Assembly (NCBI GenBank): GCA_951406725.2
Contig: OX597822.1
Span: forward strand, 8,990,001 to 9,054,000
Direction: 5' to 3'
Source: Octopus vulgaris
Lineage: Eukaryota
DNA length: 64,000 bases
Shown: piece after piece, positions 9,768 through 63,580 of the stretch
Layout of the letters: every line of letters starts with the position of its first letter
Numbering within the stretch: the first letter of the stretch is position 1
Position numbers and translations under genes: made by a program
Notes under the pieces: model-generated
Told to the model about the DNA's origin: nothing
The model's input: only the letters and a program-made list of their open reading frames with translations
Databases searched by the model: none

Positions 9768-10276
9768 GTATGTATGCACACTCACTCACACACATACGCA
9801 CGCACGCACACACACGCACATACATTGACACACACACACACACACTTATATATTGCTTCCTCTCGGTGTCTACTGCTCTCGCTGTAAGAGGTCGGATATA
9901 ATTCTGTCTAAATAGTTTCCATGTCGGAAAATAGAAAAACATATCGTAATCATACTTTTCAATCAGTAAAACTACAAACAAAGTGATCATCAATGGAATG
10001 AGAGAGAGATCGAATCAGTAATACAAGTCCTTATTAACAGGTAGAAGTTTGATGCGTAATGTTTTCTGTCGTCAGAAAGGATTTTAATTTAGATAACATA
10101 TTATTCATCGGCGAGTTAAGACGGCACTGCAATACATTGGCGTAACGCGGAAGAATATCCTACGCTATGATGTTTTACTCTGCTTAGGGAATCTAGTAAT
10201 CAGAACACCGAGTTCGATAATGCGATTAAACGGTTTAGTAATGATAAATAATACTAATAAATAACAACAACTTGCC

Positions 10277-12080
10277 TTACTAGCTAAAACTAAAACTACT
10301 TACTAAACTAAAACTACTTACTAAAAGTACTTACTAGCTAAAACTAAAACTACTAACAAAAACTAAAACAACTTACTAGCTAAAACTAAAACTACTTACT
10401 AAAGCTACTTGCTAGCTAAAACTAAAACTACTTACTAAAACTAAAACTACTTACTAAAAGTACTTACTAGCTAAAACTAAAACTACTAACTAAAACTACT
10501 TACTAGCTAAAACTAAAACTACTTACTAAAAGTACTTACTAGCTAAAACTAAAACTACTAACTAAAACTAAAACAACTTACTAGCTAAAACTAAAACTAC
10601 TTACTAAAGCTACTTGCTAGCTAAAACTAAAACTACTTACTAAAACTAAAACTACTTACTAAAAGTACTTACTAGCTAAAACTAAAACTACTAACTAAGA
10701 CTAAAACTACTTACTAAAGCTACTTGCTAGCTAAAACTAAAACTAAAACTACTTACTAAAAGTACTTACTAGCTAAAACTAAAACTACTAACTAAAACTA
10801 AAACAACTTACTAGCTAAAACTAAAACTACTTACTAAAGCTACTTACTAAAACTAAAACTACTTACTAAAACTACTTACTAGCTAAAACTAAAACTACTT
10901 ACTAAAAATACTTACTAGCTAAAACTAAAACTACTTACTAAAAGTACTTACTAGCTAAAACTAAAACTACTAACTAAAACTACTTACTAGCTAAAACTAA
11001 AACTACTTACTAAAACTAAAACTACTTACTAAAAGTACTTACTAGCTAAAACTAAAACTACTAACTAAAACTAAAACAACTTACTAGCTAAAACTAAAAC
11101 TACTTACTAAAGCTACTTGCTAGCTAAAACTAAAACTACTTACTAAAACTAAAACTACTAAAACTAAAACTACTTACTAAAAGTACTTACTAGCTAAAAC
11201 TAAAACTAAAACAACTTACTAGCTAAAACTAAAACTACTTACTAAAGCTACTTGCTAGCTAAAACTAAAACTAAAACTACTTACTAAAAGTACTTACTAG
11301 CTAAAACTAAATCTACTAACTAAAACTAAAACAACCTACTAGCTAAAACTAAAACTACTTACTAGCTAAAACTAAAACTACTTACTAAAACTAAAACTAC
11401 TTACTAAAACTACTTACTAGCTAAAACTAAAACTACTTACTAAAACTACTTACTAGCTAAAACTAAAACTACTTACTAAAACTAAAACTACTTACTAAAA
11501 CTACTTACTAGCTAAAACTAAAACTACTTACTAGCTAAAACTAAAACTAAAACTACATACTAAAACTAAAACTACTTACTAGCTAAAACTAAAACTACTT
11601 ACTAAAACTAAAACTACTTACTAGCTAAAACTAAAACTATTTACTAAAACTAAAACTACTTACTAAAACTAAAACTACTTACTAAAACTACTTACTAGCT
11701 AAAACTAAAACTACTTACTAAAACTACTTACTAGCTAAAACTAAAACTACTTACTAAAATTAAAACTACTTACTAAAATTAAAACTACTTACTAAAATTA
11801 AAACTACTTACTAAAATTAAAACTACTTACTAAAACTACTTACTAGCTAAAACTAAAACTACTTACTAAAACTACTTACTAGCTAAAACTAAAACTAAAA
11901 CTACTTACTAAAACTAAAACTACTTACTAGCTAAAACTAAAACTACTTACTAAAACTAAAACTACTTACTAGGTAAAATAATACTGATAAATTTTTTAAA
12001 AATTATAAAATAATACTGATAAATAACAACTTGCCTTACTAGCTAAAACTACTTACTAAAACTACTTACTAGCTAAAACT
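10277..12080. repeat. Minisatellite built from CTAG, CTAAAA and CTACTTA words
   Basis: Directly visible; a 23-nt module CTAGCTAAAACTAAAACTACTTA dominates; bracketed by a duplicated AAATAATACT.ATAAATAACAAC..TTGCCTTACTAGCTAAAACT. Confidence 0.95.
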
Positions 12081-12688: not shown

Positions 12689-13675
12689 TCAGGTGAAATT
12701 GGCCCATCCCTTCCAATCCATCGGTCTGGAAATGTTTGATTGAGGAACTGACGAACATGCTGTTCCCAATGTGGTGGGGGCACCATCTTGCTGGGAACTG
12801 ATGGTTGGTTGTAAATCAATCAGTTGTGGTGCCAAATATTCGGTCATAAGGTCGAGGTAAACATCCGCAGTAATTGTTGCCTCGTTGAAGAAAAATGGAC
12901 CAATTATTCGATTGCACATGATTCCACACCACACATTCACTTTTGGACTATCCCGATGAAGCTCCCTGGTCACATGAGGGTGTTCTGATCCCCAGATTCT
13001 CATATTGGGTCTGTTTAATTTCCCTGAAACATGAAAAGTGGCCGGGTCACTAAAACAAACTCACTTCAGGAATGCTTCTTCCTCAGAAATGCGTTCCAGC
13101 ATATTGAGTGCAAGCTCTTTTCGTTTTGGCTTATCATTTTGCTCAAGTGCCTGTAACAGTTGCACTTTATAAGCGTACGACCGTAAGTTCTTGTGGAGAA
13201 CCTTGCGCACTGTTGAACGTAGAAGTTGCAACTGTCTGGCAGCAGTGCGGATGGACTTCGTAGCAGAAAAAGCAAAGGCTTTTGAAACACGATCCATGTT
13301 TTCATCAGATGTTCTTGGTAGGCCACTCCTCTCTTTATCCAACACTGTCCCTGTCTCCATAAATTTCTTGTGCCATGAACGAATTGAAGGACGCGATGGT
13401 GGATCTCTTCCGTACTTAGTTCTGTAGTTTCGTTGAGTTTGAACATCGGATTTTGTCTCAATAAACCAGGATACACGTTGTGCCTCTTCATGAGGAGTAG
13501 CCATTTTACAAGGGTTCAGTGAATCAGTTCCCTTCTATCAACAGAGTATCTGAAACACAAAAATTTAATATCAATAAAACCTTTAATAAACAATTGTTAA
13601 AATAAATCAAATCTGGTTAAAATATTTCACCAACTGCCTTTCTAATATTTTTTAAAAATTGTAAATGGACTTTAT

Positions 13676-13737: not shown

Positions 13738-14206
13738 TGACGTATATTTGCCATTTAAATATGGCTAACCCCTATGGGTGGATGCTACTGTAGTTTGTAG
13801 CCCCAGGAAGATACCTCCTCCAGCTGGCTATAGACACACTTTCTGTGCCCTATCATTGTTTGATTTCACTTTTTCAATATCAGTGTCAATCGACACTGGA
13901 AAAAGTATATGTATTTGTGAGGGAAACTGAATTCTCGTCGACAACTATGATTGTCACATGCCCATGATAGGTAAATACCTTGAAACTCGAGTCCATGTGT
14001 ATCATAAGTTGAAGACGGGAAGGATGACTTCCCTTCACAAATACTGATAGGGCACAGAAAGTGTGTCTATAGCCAGCTGGAGAAGGTATCTTCCTGGGGC
14101 TACAAACTACAGTAGCATCCACCCTTAGGGGTTAGCTAAATTCAAATGGCAAATATGCGTCACGATGTGTTACGGCTACTGTTTATAACTCGCTCTGAGA
14201 TTTATC

Positions 14207-14210
<4 letters not shown>
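13734..14210 (+). mobile_element. Penelope-like pLTR (family X) with 122-bp inverted arms and a degenerate HHR
   Basis: 13734-13855 is the reverse complement of 14045-14166; (TA)n on both sides; HHR-like motif at 13955-13999. Confidence 0.6.
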
Positions 14211-14246
<36 letters not shown>

Positions 14247-14253
<7 letters not shown>

Positions 14254-14953
14254 TCAATATAGGGTGGCAAAAAATTTTGTAGAATCTTATTGCCACCAGC
14301 GGCCTAGTGGGAAAAAATTAAATAGTCATAAACCATTTTTAAGTTCAACATCACAATCAAGGAACGGCCATAATAGGCCATTCACCCACTAGAAATAACA
14401 GCCAAAAGCTTCAACCGCAAAATAACATCAATTCCGTAAACCAGGAGAAAATTAAAAAAACATTTACCCTGTAATTTCTTATACGATGCACCGTTTCGTC
14501 TACTGTTTAATGGTAAACTAACCTGATTAAATTAAATCAAGCCAATCTACCATAGGCCCTTAGATTCATCAGTAAGAAATAGCCAAGTTGGAACAGATAT
14601 TTTTCACGAGGCATTCCGTCCCTGCCTCGGCAATATCTGACCTAAAATTTTCAAATCATCGCACTCGCGCCAAATTTATCGGCAGCAAATAAATATAAGC
14701 CGCCGATTCCATTACGGAACTAACCAGAAAATTCATAATTAATCAATATAGGGTGGCAAAAAAATTTTGTAGAATCTTATTGCCACCAGCGGCCTAGTGG
14801 GAAAAAATTAAATAGTCATAAACCATTTTTAAGTTCAACATCACAATCAAGGAACGGCCATAATAGGCCATTCACCCACTAGAAATAACAGCCAAAAGCT
14901 TCAACCGCAAAATAACATCAATTCCGTAAACCAGGAGAAAATTAAAAAAACAT
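14247..14953 (-). mobile_element. Retrozyme-like ~489-nt repeat, ~1.45 tandem units, inverted relative to 15186-16387
   Basis: TAATCAATATAGGGTGGC recurs at 14251 and 14740; contains the HHR at 14474-14580. Confidence 0.8.
14474..14580 (-). ncRNA. Type I hammerhead ribozyme (487-nt family)
   Basis: Reverse complement of the 15515-15621 motif. Confidence 0.8.
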
Positions 14954-15158
14954 AAGTTGAAGACGGGAAGGATGACTTCCCTTCACAAATACTGATAGGG
15001 CACAGAAAGTGTGTCTATAGCCAGCTGGAGAAGGTATCTTCCTGGGGCTACAAACTACAGTAGCATCCACCCTTAGGGGTTAGCTAAATTCAAATGGCAA
15101 ATATGCGTCACGATGTGTTACGGCTACTGTTTATAACTCGCTCTGAGATTTATCATTA
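14951..15158 (+). repeat. 208-bp duplication of 14003-14210
   Basis: Identical by eye at offset 948; joined to the retrozyme-like unit through a CAT microhomology. Confidence 0.9.
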
Positions 15159-15514
15159 TATATATATATATATAATATATATATATGCGGTTGAGGCTTT
15201 TGGCTGTTATTTCTAGTGGGTGAATGGCCTATTATGGCCGTTCCTTGATTGTGATGTTGAACTTAAAAATGGTTTATGACTATTTAATTTTTTCCCACTA
15301 GGCCGCTGGTGGCAATAAGATTCTACAAAATTTTTTTGCCACCCTATATTGATTAATTATGAATTTTCTGGTTAGTTCCGTAATGGAATCGGCGGCTTAT
15401 ATTTATTTGCTGCCGATAAATTTGGCGCGAGTGCGATGATTTGAAAATTTTAGGTCAGATATTGCCGAGGCAGGGACGGGAATGCTTGTGAAAAATATCT
15501 GTTCCGACTTGGCT

Positions 15515-15621
15515 ATTTCTTACTGATGAATCTAAGGGCCTATGGTAGATTGGCTTGATTTAATTTAATCAGGTTAGTTTACCATTAAACAGTAGACGAA
15601 ACGGTGCATCGTATAAGAAAT
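15515..15621 (+). ncRNA. Type I hammerhead ribozyme
   Basis: Stem I ATTTCTTA/TAAGAAAT (8 bp), CTGATGA at 15523, long stem II, GAAA, near-palindromic ACGGTGCATCGT, GUA triplet 15611-15613. Confidence 0.85.
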
Positions 15622-16001
15622 TACAGGGTAAATGTTTTTTTAATTTTCTCCTGGTTTACGGAATTGATGTTATTTTGCGGTTGAAGCTTTTGGCTGTTAT
15701 TTCTAGTGGGTGAATGGCCTATTATGGCCGTTCCTTGATTGTGATGTTGAACTTAAAAATGGTTTATGACTATTTAATTTTTTTCCCACTAGCTGCTGGT
15801 GGCAATAAGATTCTACAAAATTTTTTTGCCACCCTATATTGATTAATTATGAATTTTCTGGTTAGTTCCGTAATGGAATTGGCTTATATTTATTTGCTGC
15901 CGATAAATTTGGCGCGAGTGCGATGATTTGAAAATTTTAGGTCAGATATTGCCGAGGCAGGGACGGAATGCCTCGTGAAAAATATCTGTTCCGACTTGGC
16001 T

Positions 16002-16108
16002 ATTTCTTACTGATGAATCTAAGGGCCTATGGTAGATTGGCTTGATTTAATTTAATCAGGTTAGTTTACCATTAAACAGTAGACGAAACGGTGCATCGTA
16101 TAAGAAAT
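16002..16108 (+). ncRNA. Type I hammerhead ribozyme (second tandem copy)
   Basis: Same motif; CTGATGA at 16010, GUA 16098-16100, 487 nt downstream of the first. Confidence 0.85.
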
Positions 16109-16389
16109 TACAGGGTAAATGTTTTTTAATTTTCTCCTGGTTTACGGAATTGATGTTATTTTGCGGTTGAAGCTTTTGGCTGTTATTTCTAGTGGGTGAA
16201 TGGCCTATTATGGCCGTTCCTTGATTGTGATGTTGAACTTAAAAATGGTTTATGACTATTTAATTTTTTCCCACTAGGCCGCTGGTGGCAATAAGATTCT
16301 ACAAAATTTTTTTGCCACCCTATATTGATTAATTATGAATTTTCTGGTTAGTTCCGTAATGGAATCGGCGGCTTATATTTATTTGCTCC

Positions 16390-18789: not shown

Positions 18790-19378
<589 letters not shown>

Positions 19379-23469: not shown

Positions 23470-24585
23470 TAGTTTTATTTTTATTTTTATAGCGTGCTTT
23501 CACTTCACTACCGAGCGCAGCTCTGTGTGCCTTGGGTATGTGCTGTGATTTGTTGTGATGCTCTGATGGTTATTGTATGGAAAGTGTTCTGCGTAGGATG
23601 TGTGCAATGCCTAGTAGTGCAATTTTCTGTATGTTATATGTGTTTGTAAGTCCTGGTGTTTTTGTTATGTATTTGTCTGAATATTTTTTTATCATGCCTA
23701 ATGCACCTACTATGATAGGAATTGTTTCTGTTTTCAGATTCCACATTCTAGTTACCTCTATTTCCAGGTTTTTGTATTTTGAGAGTTTCTCCATTTCTTT
23801 TAGAGACACGTTGTCATCTGCCGGTATTGATACATCAATTAGAAAGCATTTTTTTCTTCATGGTCTCTGACAACTATATCTGGTCTGTTGGCCTTAATTT
23901 CTCTATCTGTGTGTATCGGCATATCCCAGAGTATGGTTGCTTTCTCGTTTTCTGTGACCTTTTCTGGTGTGTGCCTATACCATCCTTTTTTCTGTTGTTA
24001 TTCCATAATGTTGGCATAGCTTCCAATGTATGTAAGTTCCAACTCTGTCGTGTCTGTGAATATATTCCTTCTTAGCCAGGACTGGGCAGCTAGAGATAAT
24101 ATGATTTATTGTTTCTTGTCCATCTCCACATATTCTGCAGTTACTTGTAATATTTCTTTTCATTACATGTTTTTGGTAATTTCTGGTGGGGAGGCTTTGG
24201 TCTTGTGCTGCAATTAAAAATCCCTCTGTTTCTGCTTTGAGTCCTGAGCTTCTCAACCATTGCTGGGATTTTTCTTTGTCTATTTCTTTTGCGTTTAGTT
24301 TAGTCCAGTATTTACCACGAAGGGCTTTTCTTGCCATCGTTTTATCATGGTTCGTTGCTGTTCTATTTTTAGTTTGGATTTCATTTTTTTTATAGCTTTT
24401 GTTGTTTCTTCATCTTCTTCTTCTTCTTCTTCATGTTTATTAGGTGGTATGATTTCTTGTTTGTATTTGTCAGCTTCCTTAAATACTGAGAACAGTTTTT
24501 TGTTTTGCTCGTGTTTTGCCGCTATCTGGATCAGTTTTCCTTCCTTCTGAAGTAGATATTTTTGCAGTCCTATGGTGGTTATTTT
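23463..24585 (-). mobile_element. R4/Dong-like non-LTR retrotransposon, 5'-truncated (CCHC zinc knuckle plus REL endonuclease)
   Basis: ORFs 23975-24337 (CRICGDGQETINHIISSC..RHD) and 23570-23809 (EKLSKYKNLEIE..PIIVGALG); embedded in (TAA)n on both sides. Confidence 0.9.
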
Positions 24586-24587
24586 AT

Positions 24588-24656
<69 letters not shown>

Positions 24657-45841: not shown

Positions 45842-46886
45842 TAGAGATAGACATACAAGAAACAAGCACAGAAAAAGCTAGGCGCATGAAAACCCGTGCC
45901 AAAGCTGCGGCCTTAGATATTCTGAATAATAAATGACAAGAAAAACCTCTCTATGGCAAATACCCAAAGAGAGCGAATAATGCAGATATTGACAAAGCCC
46001 TGACCCATCAATGGCTAATGGCCTCTGGCTTAAAATCTGAAACAGAAGGGTTTATCATAGCAGCTCAAGATCAATGCCTACCAACAAGAAACTACCAGGC
46101 CAACATATTAAAGAACGGCAGTAGCCCAACATGTCGTGTATGCCGACAACAAAATGAAACCATTGATCATGTTGTCTCCAAATACAGTCTTCTAGCGCCT
46201 ACAGAGTACCTCAACAGGCATGATAGAGCTGCACAATATATTCACTGGGTAATTTGCAAAAGCCTGGAGTTGCCCCATGAAAAAAACTGGTGGGAACACA
46301 ATCCACCTCCAGTGCTTGAAAATGACCACATCTCACTCCTCTGGAACTTCACCATTCAAACTGAAAGAAAGATAGATGCAAATAGGCCAGACATCATATT
46401 GAAAGACTTCAGACAAAGAACATACCTCCTCATTGATATGACTGTCCCAATCGATATAAACGTATCTGTCAAGACCTATCAAAAACTGAGCAAATATAAA
46501 GATCTTGAAATAGAAATCAGCAAAATGTGGAACCTGAAGACTAAAACAATACCTGTTGTCATAGGTGCCCTGGGAATGATAGCGAAAGGGGCTGATTGCT
46601 ACCTAACTCAGATACCAGAAAACCCCAAAATAGCAGAAGTTCAAATGATAGTGCTCATGGGAACTGCTCATATCCTACGCAAAATACTCTCTATGTAATC
46701 CGAATGTTAAAAACAAACTTTTTTTAAAATTTATATATTAGACATTCACTAGCACAGCACGAAAAAACCACCAAATATATGGCACACTAGGCATAACAAC
46801 AACGTGAACTTCCAACCTGTTGTCTCTTGAGGTCTCTGGGTGAGACTTGGAGCCAACTTGTACAGACATAAAACAAGTCAAACATA

Positions 46887-48655: not shown

Positions 48656-48818
48656 CGCAAGAGTGAGTGTGTGATAAGAAGCTTGCTTCCAAACCACACG
48701 GTTCCGCGTTCAGTCCGATTGCGTGTCACCTTGGGCAAGTGTCTTCTACTATAGCCTCGGGCCGACCAAGGCCTTGTGAGTGGATATGGTAGACAGAAAC
48801 TAAAAAGAGCCAGTTGTT

Positions 48819-48883
<65 letters not shown>

Positions 48884-49090
48884 ATGAATATATATATATA
48901 TATATGTATGTCGCTTGACAACCGATGTTGGTTTGTTTACGTACCCATGACTTAGCGATTCGGCAAAATAGACCGATAAAATAAGTACTAGGCTTAGAAT
49001 GAATAAGTCCTAGGGTCGATTTGATCGACCACAGGCGATGTTCCAGTATGGCCGCAGTCAAATCACTGAAACAAGTAAGAGAATAAAAGC
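48656..49090 (+). mobile_element. SINE family S1 (diverged)
   Basis: Matches other S1 copies. Confidence 0.75.
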
Positions 49091-49351
49091 GTATATATAT
49101 GTATGTATAAATTAACAATTGAGGATAAAATCTTTAAAAGAAATTATCAGTAGTCAGCGTGAAAAGCCTCGTAAGAGATAAAATCCGTAAATTCTTCCTC
49201 TTTGAAAATATTCATTTATATTATATTGAGGGTACTACTATTCGTAGATACCAACACGCTAAGAGGGACCAATGCGGTCAAAACTACTAAAAATAAACAA
49301 AATTTTACCGAATGCAAAACTTCAAAACACATCATTTTAAAAAAGAATTCA

Positions 49352-49415
49352 GTTACATATCACATGTGATTTCGCATTTAATGCAGAATTTGCATTTCAT
49401 GTTCATCAGTGCAAC
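49352..49415 (-). ncRNA. Type I hammerhead ribozyme (498-nt family)
   Basis: Reverse complement of 49874-49937 (one loop difference). Confidence 0.75.
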
Positions 49416-49873
49416 AAACTCAAGAAATATAAGAGAAAAACATAACATTACAAGCTCGATAGCCAACCGTAGAATTCGTCGTAGCATGTACGAATGTTTA
49501 TCTTTACATATCTATGAAAATGGCGGGCTTATTCGCAATGCATTTCGGTACCATATTGTCTAGTCGGAATAAAAATTCAGTATTGAACTATTCCGGTGAA
49601 AAATATAAATTAACAATTGAGGATAAAATCTTTAAAAGAAATTATCAGTAGTCAGCGTGAAAAGCCTCGTAATTGTTAATTTATATTTTTCACCGGAATA
49701 GTTCAATACTGAATTTTTATTCCGACTAGACAATATGGTACCGAAATGCATTGCGAATAAGCCCGCCATTTTCATAGATATGTAAAGATAAACATTCGTA
49801 CATGCTACGACGAATTCTACGGTTGGCTATCGAGCTTGTAATGTTATGTTTTTCTCTTATATTTCTTGAGTTT

Positions 49874-49937
49874 GTTGCACTGATGAACATGAAATGCATA
49901 TTCTGCATTAAATGCGAAATCACATGTGATATGTAAC
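49874..49937 (+). ncRNA. Type I hammerhead ribozyme (498-nt family)
   Basis: Stem I GTTGCA/TGTAAC, CTGATGA at 49880, stem II CAT..AATGCA/TGCATT..ATG, GAAA, palindrome ATCACATGTGAT, AUA triplet 49929-49931. Confidence 0.8.
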
Positions 49938-50239
49938 TGAATTCTTTTTTAAAATGATGTGTTTTGAAGTTTTGCATTCGGTAAAATTTTGTTTATTTTT
50001 AGTAGTTTTGACCGCATTGGTCCCTCTTAGCGTGTTGGTATCTACGAATAGTAGTACCCTCAATATAATATATATGTATGTATATATATATATATATATA
50101 TATATGTCATATGTATATATATATATATATATATCATTGTATGAAAAAATTTATAACATTCTTCTGACATAATGACTCAAATATATATTTTTTAACCTTT
50201 TAAAACAAGCCTTCTGTAGTTTTTTCACTTTTTACTATT

Positions 50240-50271: not shown

Positions 50272-50690
50272 TCTTTTTTCTCTTTTTACTCTTTTTACTT
50301 GTTTCAGTCATTTGACTGCGGCCATGCTGGAGCACCGCCTTTAGTCGAGCAAATCGACCCCGGGACGTATTCTTTGTAAGCCCAGTACTTATTCTATCGG
50401 TCTCTTTTGCCGAACCGCTAAGTGACGGGGACGTAAACACACCAGCATCGGTTGTCAAGCAATGCTAGGGGAACAAACACAGACACACAAACATATTCAT
50501 ACACACATATATATATATACATATATACGACAGACTTCTTTCAGTTTCCGTCTACCAAATCCACTCTCAAGGCATTGGTCGGCCCGGGGCTATAGCAGAA
50601 GACACATGCCCAAGATGCCACGCAGTGGGACTGAACCCGGAACCATATGGTTGGTTAGCAAGCTACTTACCAAACAGCCACTCCTGCGCC
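50271..50690 (-). mobile_element. SINE family S1, full length
   Basis: Matches other S1 copies. Confidence 0.9.
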
Positions 50691-54586: not shown

Positions 54587-54911
54587 CATATATACATAAA
54601 TATATACGCACACAAATAGACAGACAGACAGACAAAAGACAAACTTACTCATATACTTATGTACATATACACATACATACAGATACATACATTCAATAAT
54701 ATATACAGTTGTATACGCAGTAAAATAATTCACTTAATATTTATACACGTCCACACACGTAGATTATATGTGTGTATATGTATGTACCAAAGTATATGCA
54801 TGTGTATGTAATGTATATTTTTCGTAAATATTCCAAAATATTATACAGAAAGAAATGAAAGAGCAAAATATAGGGTATATTTGTTTGATACTCAAGAGTA
54901 ATGGGAAAATG

Positions 54912-54948
54912 TTTTGATGTTTCGAGCCTCCGCTCTTCTTCAGTAAGA
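54912..54948 (-). ncRNA. Degenerate minimal hammerhead
   Basis: CTGAAGA A GAGC GGAG GCTC GAAAC ATC on the minus strand; stem I is poor. Confidence 0.4.
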
Positions 54949-55081
54949 AATAGCGAACGAAGACAAATGGAGAGAGAAAATATGGTAACAAAAGTACGAG
55001 TCTAAATTAAGGGTTTTACATGTTGAACTGTTGTATATGTAATGTTTACATATATAAATAACTGTATACAATAATAGAAAT

Positions 55082-55339
55082 ATTAAAATTACTAAGTCTA
55101 GCTAAAGGAGATTACGGCAGCGTTACTGGATATTAATAGTTATCGCCATACTAATATGGCAGTCTATAAATATAAAACTAAAGCTGTCGCTGATTAGCTC
55201 CAAGAGGCCATCGCCTCTAGCTAGCTATATGACACTTGAACCTGCGTCCATTACAACCTTCGAACAGGGGAGCTAATCAGCGACAGCTTTAGTCTTATGT
55301 TTATAGACTGCCATATTAGTAAGGCGATAACTATTAATA
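55082..55339. mobile_element. Repeat with 71-bp inverted arms (homolog at 30621-30712)
   Basis: 55131-55201 / 55269-55339 inverted. Confidence 0.65.
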
Positions 55340-55497
55340 ACTGTATACATATATATATATATATACATATACATACATAAATATAAATGCGTGTGCGTGT
55401 GTGTGCGTACATATACATACATATCTGTGTGTATGTCTCTCTCTGTGTCTATGTGCGTAAGACTGAGATATTGATTCCCTTATGTATGTTTTTGCAG

Positions 55498-62454: not shown

Positions 62455-63580
62455 AATGGAAGGCACGAGAATTTTTATTAATCACTGCAATTGTTTCGAC
62501 ACATGTAGTATCGATCCTTCACGGGTGGAATACTTAACAACTGACTCAGGAGCATCCAACGGCGCAGATTTGTCTCTTCGGGTGGCAAACAGAAACAAGT
62601 CGGTAAAACAACATGCGAAAATAACAGTTCTCTAATGTATCTTCTCACTTCTTGTAACGAAAAGCAGCAAATTAAAGGATATAGTTTCATTTATATAGAA
62701 TATCAATAATAAAATAAGCAGATGCAGAAAAGAAACGAACACGCAATACAGTGAAAAAAGTATTTAAAATAACTGTTAACGAATATGGATGTATAAACGC
62801 CCTCACGTAAGTTGTATGGCGCATGTACACTCGCTCATGCAAGCATTCACTAAGATGTAGGCATACGCATACATTTGGTTTGGTGCGCATACTGTCACAC
62901 AGCAAGTTAAGTAGCTACTTGGTGTTTATAAGAACGGGGAGGTTAAATCTAGGCTTAATTCATCCATACCTTAAAGTAAGTTATATAAACAGTTACTCAA
63001 GTTCATTGAGTTACTGCATTGTGCGAAAGTAGATTTTTATGCATGCAGGTATCATGAAAGTCTTTCAGAAATTCTCTTAATGATCTTCTCATTGGTCCAC
63101 AGAATAGACAGGGATTCCTCAGAGCAGAGCCGAAATCTCATGGAAATGATATTATATGGTTTTGCGTGCCATATTATGGACAAAGTTATGCTATACTTAA
63201 TTTCATTTTCATTCAGCCGCCTTAAAAAATCGGCCAAAGATGTTGAATGTCTCTTATTGATTCTCCTGAAGCTGGTGAAATGGTTGCGATAACGGTTCTT
63301 GAATGAAAAAGACGTTTGCCCAGCGTAAACTTACGATCCTCCCTTTCTGTGCACGGTACAGTTATATGCAAAATTCGTACTGATACAGAGGTTCATCAAT
63401 GGGCACACAGAACCATATAATATCATTTCCAGGAGATGCCTGCTCTGTCCCGACGAATCCTTCCCTATTCTGTGGCCAATAAGATCATGAATAGAATTTC
63501 TGAAAGACTTTCAAGATGCCAGCATGCATATAAATGTACTTGCGCACAATGCAATGAGAATGGATTTGAGTAACTGTTAG
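62455..63580 (-). mobile_element. Old Penelope-like element: GIY-YIG remnant, 3' pLTR with HHR, inverted 5' duplicate
   Basis: Minus frame VCPLMNLCISTNFAYNCTV..VYAGQTSFSFKNRYRNHFTSFR..STSLADFLRRL..AKPYNIISMRFRLCSEE; plus-strand arm 63395-63580 repeats the C-terminus (EPYNIISRRCLLC..RLSRCQH). Confidence 0.8.
62481..62586 (-). ncRNA. Decayed type I hammerhead with long stem II
   Basis: GCCAC CCGAAGA GACA..TGTC GAAAC AATT GCA GTGAT; two core lesions (U4C; GUA to GCA). Confidence 0.5.

Follow-up and report, generated by a model that had tools for sequence, protein, structure and literature searches.

The locus at 49106-50072 is very probably a young copy of a multi-copy, non-coding repeat with a unit of 498 nt, which originates from the pseudo-LTR of a Penelope-like element (PLE), corresponds to a "non-LTR retrozyme" and reached its present position in one insertion event. 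The repeat would have been mobilised in trans by a Penelope reverse transcriptase/GIY-YIG endonuclease. As a non-autonomous Penelope derivative it is a new family of a known kind and not a new system. The novelty implied by an earlier, sequence-only reading of this DNA is therefore not upheld, since a tandem with an adjacent inverted copy is a described structure of Penelope-like insertions. Its membership in the PLE-mobilised retrozymes is likely but incomplete, as the G10.1-C11.1 pair of the hammerhead core and a tandem of two units are missing at this locus.

Structure, age and further copies of the repeat

The sequence-only reading had placed two foldback arms at 49217-49618 and 49671-50072 around a spacer of 52 nt. 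These coordinates proved to be exact, the arms being reverse complements that differ at one of 402 positions (49390/49899, inside the loop of hammerhead stem II). The proposed period of 498 nt followed by an inverted copy was likewise found, the two copies of the direct repeat (Table 1) being identical at 69 of 69 positions. Since the period rests at this locus on these 69 nt, the tandem amounts to 1.14 units (567/498) and not to two full units. The left and the right copy are arranged head-to-head with both 3' ends pointing outward into TA-rich DNA, and the right arm is nested entirely within the span of the left copy. According to a BLAST search there are no further copies of the unit in the window, i.e. 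in the whole 64-kb stretch of DNA that was analysed. The TA-rich flanks, the tandem-plus-inversion layout and the size class had been likened to those of a second repeat family of 487 nt in the window, and this likeness was borne out.

Table 1. Features of the 498-nt repeat and of its insertion site (positions in the window).
Feature	Position	Strand	Remark
Left target-site duplication, 17 nt at most	49093..49109	+	longest shared flank match; in TA-rich microsatellite after SINE-like tail
Left copy, 567 nt (unit positions 430-498, then 1-498)	49106..49672	-	3' end 49106 abuts (TA)n
First copy of 69-nt direct repeat	49106..49174	.	sets the 498-nt period
Left foldback arm	49217..49618	-	
Type I hammerhead, left copy	49345..49421	-	descriptor match at 49409, extent mirrored from right arm
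Second copy of 69-nt direct repeat	49604..49672	.	
Inversion joint	49617..49672	+	TT-GAGG (49617-49622) can pair with CCTC-GT-AA (49665-49672); encloses spacer 49619-49670 (52 nt); 49671-49672 common to both copies
Right arm: inverted, 5'-truncated copy (unit positions 484-498, then 1-387)	49671..50072	+	3' end abuts (TA)n
Type I hammerhead, right copy	49868..49944	+	own descriptor; predicted cut after A49931
Right target-site duplication	50068..50084	+	8-nt core 50073-50080

The unit has a GC content of 32% and is predicted to adopt a self-paired fold as a circle (z -2.8 compared with 60 shuffles). The longest ATG frames of the circular unit encode 44 aa (sense) and 83 aa (antisense). None of the three small frames of the unit had a Pfam match at the cut-off, and a JmjN match at E 0.14 for one small frame was rejected. 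An open reading frame for a reverse transcriptase plus GIY-YIG domain was not found in the unit. An ATG frame of 22 codons (49150-49215, minus strand) lies between the alternative 3' ends, again with no Pfam match at the cut-off. The tails of PLEs often carry the first codons of the open reading frame; for the 22-codon frame this interpretation was dismissed on account of the stop at codon 23. A sigma-70 promoter scan was also discarded, as it yielded background (6 vs 5.7) and as the model does not apply to the host.

A single target duplication of 8-17 nt encloses the whole insert, the left copy of the duplication being reduced to an 8-nt core (49098-49105) once the overlap with the TA-rich ends of the element is removed. 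The duplicated 17-mer occurs five times in the window, both strands counted, and random pairs of microsatellite 17-mers match with a probability of about 0.03, so that this low-complexity duplication is supportive but not decisive. The divergence between the arms of 0.25% (1/402; 95% range 0.006-1.4%) suggests a young insertion, unless the arms have converted each other. The recent insertion assumed from the sequence alone is thus in agreement with the divergence of the arms and with the intact target duplication.

Composite SINE-like repeat copies (48656-49090 and 50284-50688) flank the insertion in opposite orientation, and the part at 48913-49090 matches at least ten other places in the window. 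Due to their identity of 79-87% we rejected the idea that they form part of a larger palindrome.

It seems extremely improbable that the foldback arose as an artefact of a chimeric read or of the assembly. The inversion joint was indeed absent, both as a joint and as a piece, among the listed pieces of contigs from four other runs, which would be expected of an artefact. A chimera is nevertheless unlikely since one target duplication surrounds the whole insert and since the mirror symmetry stops at the flank: beyond 50072 only 73 of 228 positions match, and past the target duplication the right flank is again unrelated sequence. Furthermore, every aligned contig of the four runs carries the right arm's letter at 49390, the one site at which the arms differ, the flanking SINE-like copies are just 79-87% alike, and the window contains further head-to-head structures.

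The stretch or part of it was present in 20 of 24 listed public sequencing runs (ten studies; best share 0.72). Contigs of four runs, including those referred to here as X1, X3 and X4, were aligned to 49175-49700 only, the listed loose ends and pieces being counted. Contigs that run past 49672 with a match of 22/25 to the sequence from 49175 onward were found in X1 (one), X3 (six) and X4 (two), and X3 record 17 spans the joint between units at 49603/49604 by 49 and 35 letters. Taken together, these contigs close the 498-nt circle, and the unit is therefore tandem or circularly permuted elsewhere. The 498-nt period, which the sequence-only reading had expected in other copies, is hence found in contigs of X1, X3 and X4.

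In other copies the end lies at 49603 within TA-rich flanks (two contigs each of X1 and X4), or at 49214 or 49217 within pure (TA)n (one X4 contig each). These ends are equivalent to both 3' ends used at the locus, which are 111 nt apart, the inner end being represented by two contigs of one run. At 49551 and 49554 the letters common to both arms differ from most of the contig depth in X1, X3 and X4, which points either to one template or to a species or population difference between the window and the runs. Run X20, which is recorded as RNA, contributed one contig of 250 nt with a depth of 2.2, and run X4, which is guessed to be RNA, contributed 33 contigs; a DNA origin is possible for both. 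In X3 the contig depth dips over the hammerhead, but contig depths added together do not give a copy number, and the dip was left out of the argument.

The hammerhead motif and its presumed function

The hammerheads were located with a type I descriptor built for this analysis, which matched five times in the window (twice here and three times in the 487-nt family) and not at all in each of 30 dinucleotide-shuffled windows. The predicted cut in the left copy lies between 49358 and 49357. The core of the right copy consists of CUGAUGA (49880-49886) and GAA (49916-49918), and its stem III is a perfect 12-nt palindrome (49919-49930) with the triplet AUA at 49929-49931, which fits the NUH preference (PMC3923133). 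Stem I comprises 6 bp (49874-49879/49932-49937) plus 5 distal bp (49868-49872/49940-49944), and the stem II region of 29 nt carries a 2x2 internal loop. The elements CUGAnGA, GAAA and U16.1-H17 occur in type I order, and stems I, II and III can form with 6+5, 3+6 and 4 bp, respectively.

The assumption of an intact hammerhead in each arm thus holds for the core, the stems and the AUA triplet, but is otherwise too strong. The G10.1-C11.1 pair, which is described as highly conserved (PMC4209133), is replaced by A10.1 (A49887) opposite C11.1 (C49915); a G at 10.1 is carried by a minority of the contigs, namely three of X3 (about 13% of the depth) and one of X4 (11%). Moreover, the hammerhead is not the fold of lowest energy. 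With -12.7 kcal/mol it lies 3.4 kcal/mol above the minimum (-16.1 kcal/mol), and its predicted probability as a monomer is 0.0008, the core pairing with the palindrome instead (pair probabilities of 0.72-0.77 vs 0.06-0.07 for stem III). The 91-nt hammerhead stretch also folds no better than shuffled sequences (z -0.67). Finally, no hammerhead was found by Rfam among the 10 local matches or among the 150 listed of 170 window matches. Minimal and variant hammerheads are often missed by Rfam models. The Rfam matches listed were rejected as driven by microsatellites or hairpins and as below the gathering score.

The palindrome of stem III is stable only as a duplex (-15.8 kcal/mol, compared with +0.4 kcal/mol for the hairpin alone), which fits a dimeric ribozyme. 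The most likely role of the predicted hammerhead would be to release monomers from multimeric RNAs transcribed at tandem source loci; for this it would probably dimerise via the palindrome or be assisted by a protein. Protein assistance of the hammerhead has been described for the anole PLE, in which uncut RNA is the main template (PMC11167929). Activity of the present motif cannot be assumed since only one of nine predicted dimeric hammerheads cleaved in vitro (bioRxiv 10.64898/2026.07.22.740005).

The locus itself is probably a dead-end copy. It carries one sense hammerhead per strand, and the at least two consecutive hammerhead-bearing units by which the 2026 preprint recognises active copies do not occur here, which lowers the probability of an active copy but not the likeness to the family. 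The sequence-only reading had also expected a read-through transcript to form the foldback. This is supported by the computed fold of a transcript across both arms (MFE -710.7 kcal/mol, 442 pairs), in which the one sense hammerhead would be trapped. The dsRNA idea is plausible, but it is generic to any young inverted repeat.

A highly improbable reading goes further and proposes a retrozyme lineage in a heavily editing host whose hammerhead is activated by A-to-I editing at position 10.1, with edited RNA being occasionally rewritten into the genome and with foldbacks serving as dsRNA sinks. A-C mismatches are favoured ADAR sites; the A-C at 10.1/11.1 is common to both families of about 490-500 nt, and there are minority contigs with G. 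However, site 10.1 is located at a three-way junction and sense A-to-G changes are not enriched in the run contigs (three T>C and three A>G sites on the plus strand), the G form may simply be ancestral, and the host is only presumably an octopus. A literature search on hammerheads and ADAR A-to-I editing found no title on a natural editing-activated hammerhead.

Integration and competing explanations

The insertion would have started with the endonuclease nicking the TA microsatellite. The 3'-OH of the plus strand at about 49105 may then have primed reverse transcription at the main 3' end of the family, presumably on a multimeric or circular RNA template, and synthesis would have run for 567 nt, i.e. 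for more than one unit, before stopping at 49672. The plus strand from the left flank onward would accordingly represent the first-strand cDNA, with CCTC-GT-AA as its end at 49672. Presumably this end folded back onto TT-GAGG, located 54 nt upstream, and a further 402 nt were synthesised with the cDNA as its own template; an extension from this pairing yields the right arm exactly. Synthesis would have stopped at unit position 387, the second preferred end, and a shared ATATA could have linked the new end to the opposite side of the target. If this integration model holds, then the foldback is a by-product of integration and not a selected device.

Provided that the repeat is what we propose, the snap-back is the somewhat favoured origin of the inverted copy, two converging cDNAs are possible but clearly less probable, and a later duplication at the DNA level seems unlikely. 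The snap-back is favoured by the microhomology at the joint, the nested arm and the variants shared by the arms. The complementarity at the joint is rare: an equally good score is reached by 231 of 234,060 pairs of ends and partners in the unit, and a partner of this kind lies within 100 nt of 32 of the 498 possible ends, the score having been devised after the joint had been seen. The snap-back helix is predicted to be weak, with pair probabilities of 0.04-0.19 for GAGG/CCTC and below 0.01 for the terminal pairs. Head-to-head inversions with palindromic joints have been interpreted as the result of self-priming and placed on an antisense template (PMC3846280). We infer that the snap-back of a cDNA would give the polarity of this model without an antisense template.

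Twin priming is a conceivable but rather unlikely alternative, in which both target nicks prime cDNAs at unit positions 498 and 387 and the cDNA ends are joined through microhomology. Such a mechanism is known from L1; a literature search on Penelope and twin priming gave no title on the subject. The template would be either one multimeric RNA, with a gap of 42 nt (positions 388-429), or two RNAs on a dimer of the reverse transcriptase. PLE protein of the anole nicks both strands at AT-rich sites and extends both, with two internal start sites of reverse transcription and a modelled dimer (PMC11167929), which would suit this mechanism, as would the recurrence of both 3' ends in other runs and the unit coordinates, which are compatible with a single template two or more units long. 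However, twin priming does not by itself explain why the 5' ends lie just 54 nt apart and why the right arm is nested, and next to another hammerhead remnant there is a second palindrome with a short loop (arms of 71 nt, spacer of 67 nt, 55131-55339).

It is improbable that the locus consists of 5'-truncated pseudo-LTR ends of an autonomous PLE and not of a free-standing repeat. Truncated PLE copies do look like this locus (PMC8557442, PMC4209133), and in X3 record 16 (346 nt) the first 90 letters fit 49529-49618 before the contig leaves the unit for other sequence, which could lead into a coding region. Against this, in three runs the listed loose ends behind 49672 lead back into the unit, none of those listed is identifiable as coding, and there is no frame with a Pfam match. 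Slightly more doubtful still is a simple insertion that was later made palindromic by a template switch at the DNA level (fork stalling or repair) with 402 nt being copied backwards. Such a switch would account for the nested arm, for the near-identical arms and for the microhomology at both switch points (the joint and ATATA). On the other hand, the arm stops within the element at a 3' end that is also used by other copies, one target duplication surrounds the whole, and the structure is typical of published PLE insertions (PMC8557442, PMC3846280). A MITE or foldback DNA transposon was rejected, as the left copy reaches 111 nt beyond the arm and contains a direct repeat and a hammerhead, and as the unit is circularly permuted.

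Under the preferred reading, the locus provides a clean and very young record of a Penelope-type integration with a cDNA of more than one unit, two preferred starts, one target duplication and a joint on microhomology. If many such joints were collected across the genome, snap-back and twin priming could be told apart. The A10.1-C11.1 combination common to both families represents a small, testable variant of the hammerhead core.

Related repeats in the window and comparison with known systems

The sequence-only reading had considered the 498-nt repeat to be independent of the 487-nt family (14246-16387), with no evident similarity between them. A BLAST search of the unit against this family gave no match, which agrees with the latter statement; the global alignment in register stands against it. 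Registered on the 3' ends it scores 12, a score that was reached by 0/500 dinucleotide shuffles, 1/200 letter shuffles, 0/135 out-of-phase rotations, 0/300 block shuffles at each of three sizes and 0/484 background segments. The similarity is located between the cut site and the 3' end (5/500 shuffles). The local alignment (41/500 shuffles), the part 5' of the core (147/500) and the last 30 nt (140/500) are non-significant, and the alignment of the whole units does not superimpose the two cores.

Both families have a head-to-head arrangement, a TA-rich end with a similar terminal motif, A10.1-C11.1, an A at position 17 and a stem III of 12 nt, and the distance from the cut site to the 3' end is comparable (252 nt in the 498-nt unit and 236 nt in the 487-nt family). 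In view of the weak similarity in register, the common A-C pair and these distances the label of an unrelated family is not supported, and the 487-nt family is probably a distant relative. The alignment in register and the shared A-C pair suggest a distant kinship or a shared constraint. In contrast to the 498-nt repeat, the 487-nt family has a much longer stem II and comprises 2.5 + 1.45 units, and its arms are separated by 233 nt of duplicated host DNA. Its left inverted copy is flanked by a direct duplication of 237 nt of host DNA (14003-14239 and 14951-15186, 99.6% identical), which far exceeds the usual target duplication, and the right tandem starts directly after the second copy.

Further hammerhead-like sequences were noted in the window. 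A third remnant (54760-55345, minus strand), with the palindrome 55131-55339 at its 5' side, has about 15 nt before the core and the 3'-end motif in common with the 487-nt family; it shows a bulged A, G10.1-C11.1 and a decayed stem I. Two inverted, outward-facing copies (18798-18912 and 19261-19374; 83% identical) with a core resembling minimal hammerheads are separated by trinucleotide microsatellites. A decayed GIY-YIG-like frame of 92 aa (63055-63330, minus strand) resembled only viral GIY-YIG clusters in the Atlas comparison (0.91-0.92), with no Pfam family and no sequence homologue among 61 longer candidates. Downstream of this frame lie, near 62570-62460, a degenerate motif resembling a hammerhead and also a (CA)n tract. 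The region 63330-62440 (minus strand) is a probable 3' end of an autonomous PLE of another family. The frame with its downstream motif counts in favour of the proposed identity of the 498-nt repeat; an autonomous partner with the 498-nt unit was not found in the window. In general, the window resembles animal DNA, with many microsatellites and interspersed repeats, and its repeat landscape appears similar to that of an octopus genome. It includes remnants of a Tc1/mariner-like transposase (HTH DUF4817 match) and of LINE-like 3' coding regions (12689-13534, minus; 45937-46698, plus; 23570-24591, minus), a weak zf-RVT match at 45937-46695 and a 1.7-kb minisatellite (10276-11985) of short TAAAAC/TACT-like units with periods of 36-55.

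The family is probably new in a lineage from which none has been described in the searched literature, as none of the titles listed by a search on octopus hammerhead ribozymes concerns such repeats. The genome of O. vulgaris contains 31 recently active Penelope-like families (PMC13282606). Neither ribozymes nor retrozymes are mentioned in the available text of this repeat annotation, and its library may already contain the 498-nt unit without a name. Three short motifs (two of the present hammerhead and one of the 487-nt family) were absent from the searched supplement of PMC8557442. An exact 22-nt core pattern had no match in metagenome_contigs or viral_contigs. A 19-nt pattern matched 41 loci in genome_contigs, of which 25 had any BLAST match to the unit and none a match longer than 30 nt; with about 17 expected under uniform composition, these loci were rejected as chance matches.

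The 498-nt repeat resembles animal non-LTR retrozymes (PMC7229834, bioRxiv 10.64898/2026.07.22.740005) in its GC-poor, non-coding unit, which measures a few hundred bp and carries one type I hammerhead, in the head-to-tail unit joint (69-nt redundancy at the locus, circle closed in X1, X3 and X4), in a target duplication of more than 4 bp and in the self-paired circular fold. Its unit of 498 nt is longer than the 150-450 bp given in PMC7229834 and lies within the 51-972 bp of the 2026 preprint. Unlike these retrozymes it has 1.14 units, A10.1-C11.1, a stem II region of 29 nt and a stem III palindrome of 12 nt. The word "inverted" does not occur in the main text of PMC7229834.

With the minimal PLE hammerheads, as far as described in PMC4209133, the motif shares the type I order, the palindromic stem III, the long stem II, the A after A9 and the occurrence as pairs on opposite strands, 100-700 bp apart. 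The minimal hammerheads keep G10.1-C11.1 after a bulged base and have almost no stem III, whereas the 498-nt unit lacks the G at 10.1 and its stem III can form 4 bp. By description, the pDo500 satellite of Dolichopoda crickets (PMC2837043) is also similar, with repeats of about 500 bp (463-505), one hammerhead per unit and both single and double hammerhead folds. It differs in being a satellite of high copy number, which makes up about 5% of one genome, and in cleaving itself in vitro, and "inverted" is absent from the text of PMC2837043.

The insertion as a whole agrees with what is described for PLEs, namely a partial tandem with an adjacent inverted, 5'-truncated copy and a bias for (TA)n (PMC8557442). 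A 30-40-bp tail is part of the same description. The (TA)n preference is also reported there for the Naiad and Hydra families from Octopus species. The 498-nt repeat shares the partial tandem with a head-to-head, inverted and 5'-truncated copy, two alternative 3' ends, the hammerhead near the 3' end and the AT-rich (TA)n target with a duplication of variable length, which is of low complexity here. It differs from PLEs in having no frame for a reverse transcriptase and endonuclease and in a distance of 111 nt instead of 30-40 nt between the alternative 3' ends, the inner end being known from two contigs of one run. Non-autonomous families that form pseudo-LTRs have been described among PLEs (PMC8557442), and retrozymes of 51-972 bp have been presented as pseudo-LTR derivatives (bioRxiv 10.64898/2026.07.22.740005).
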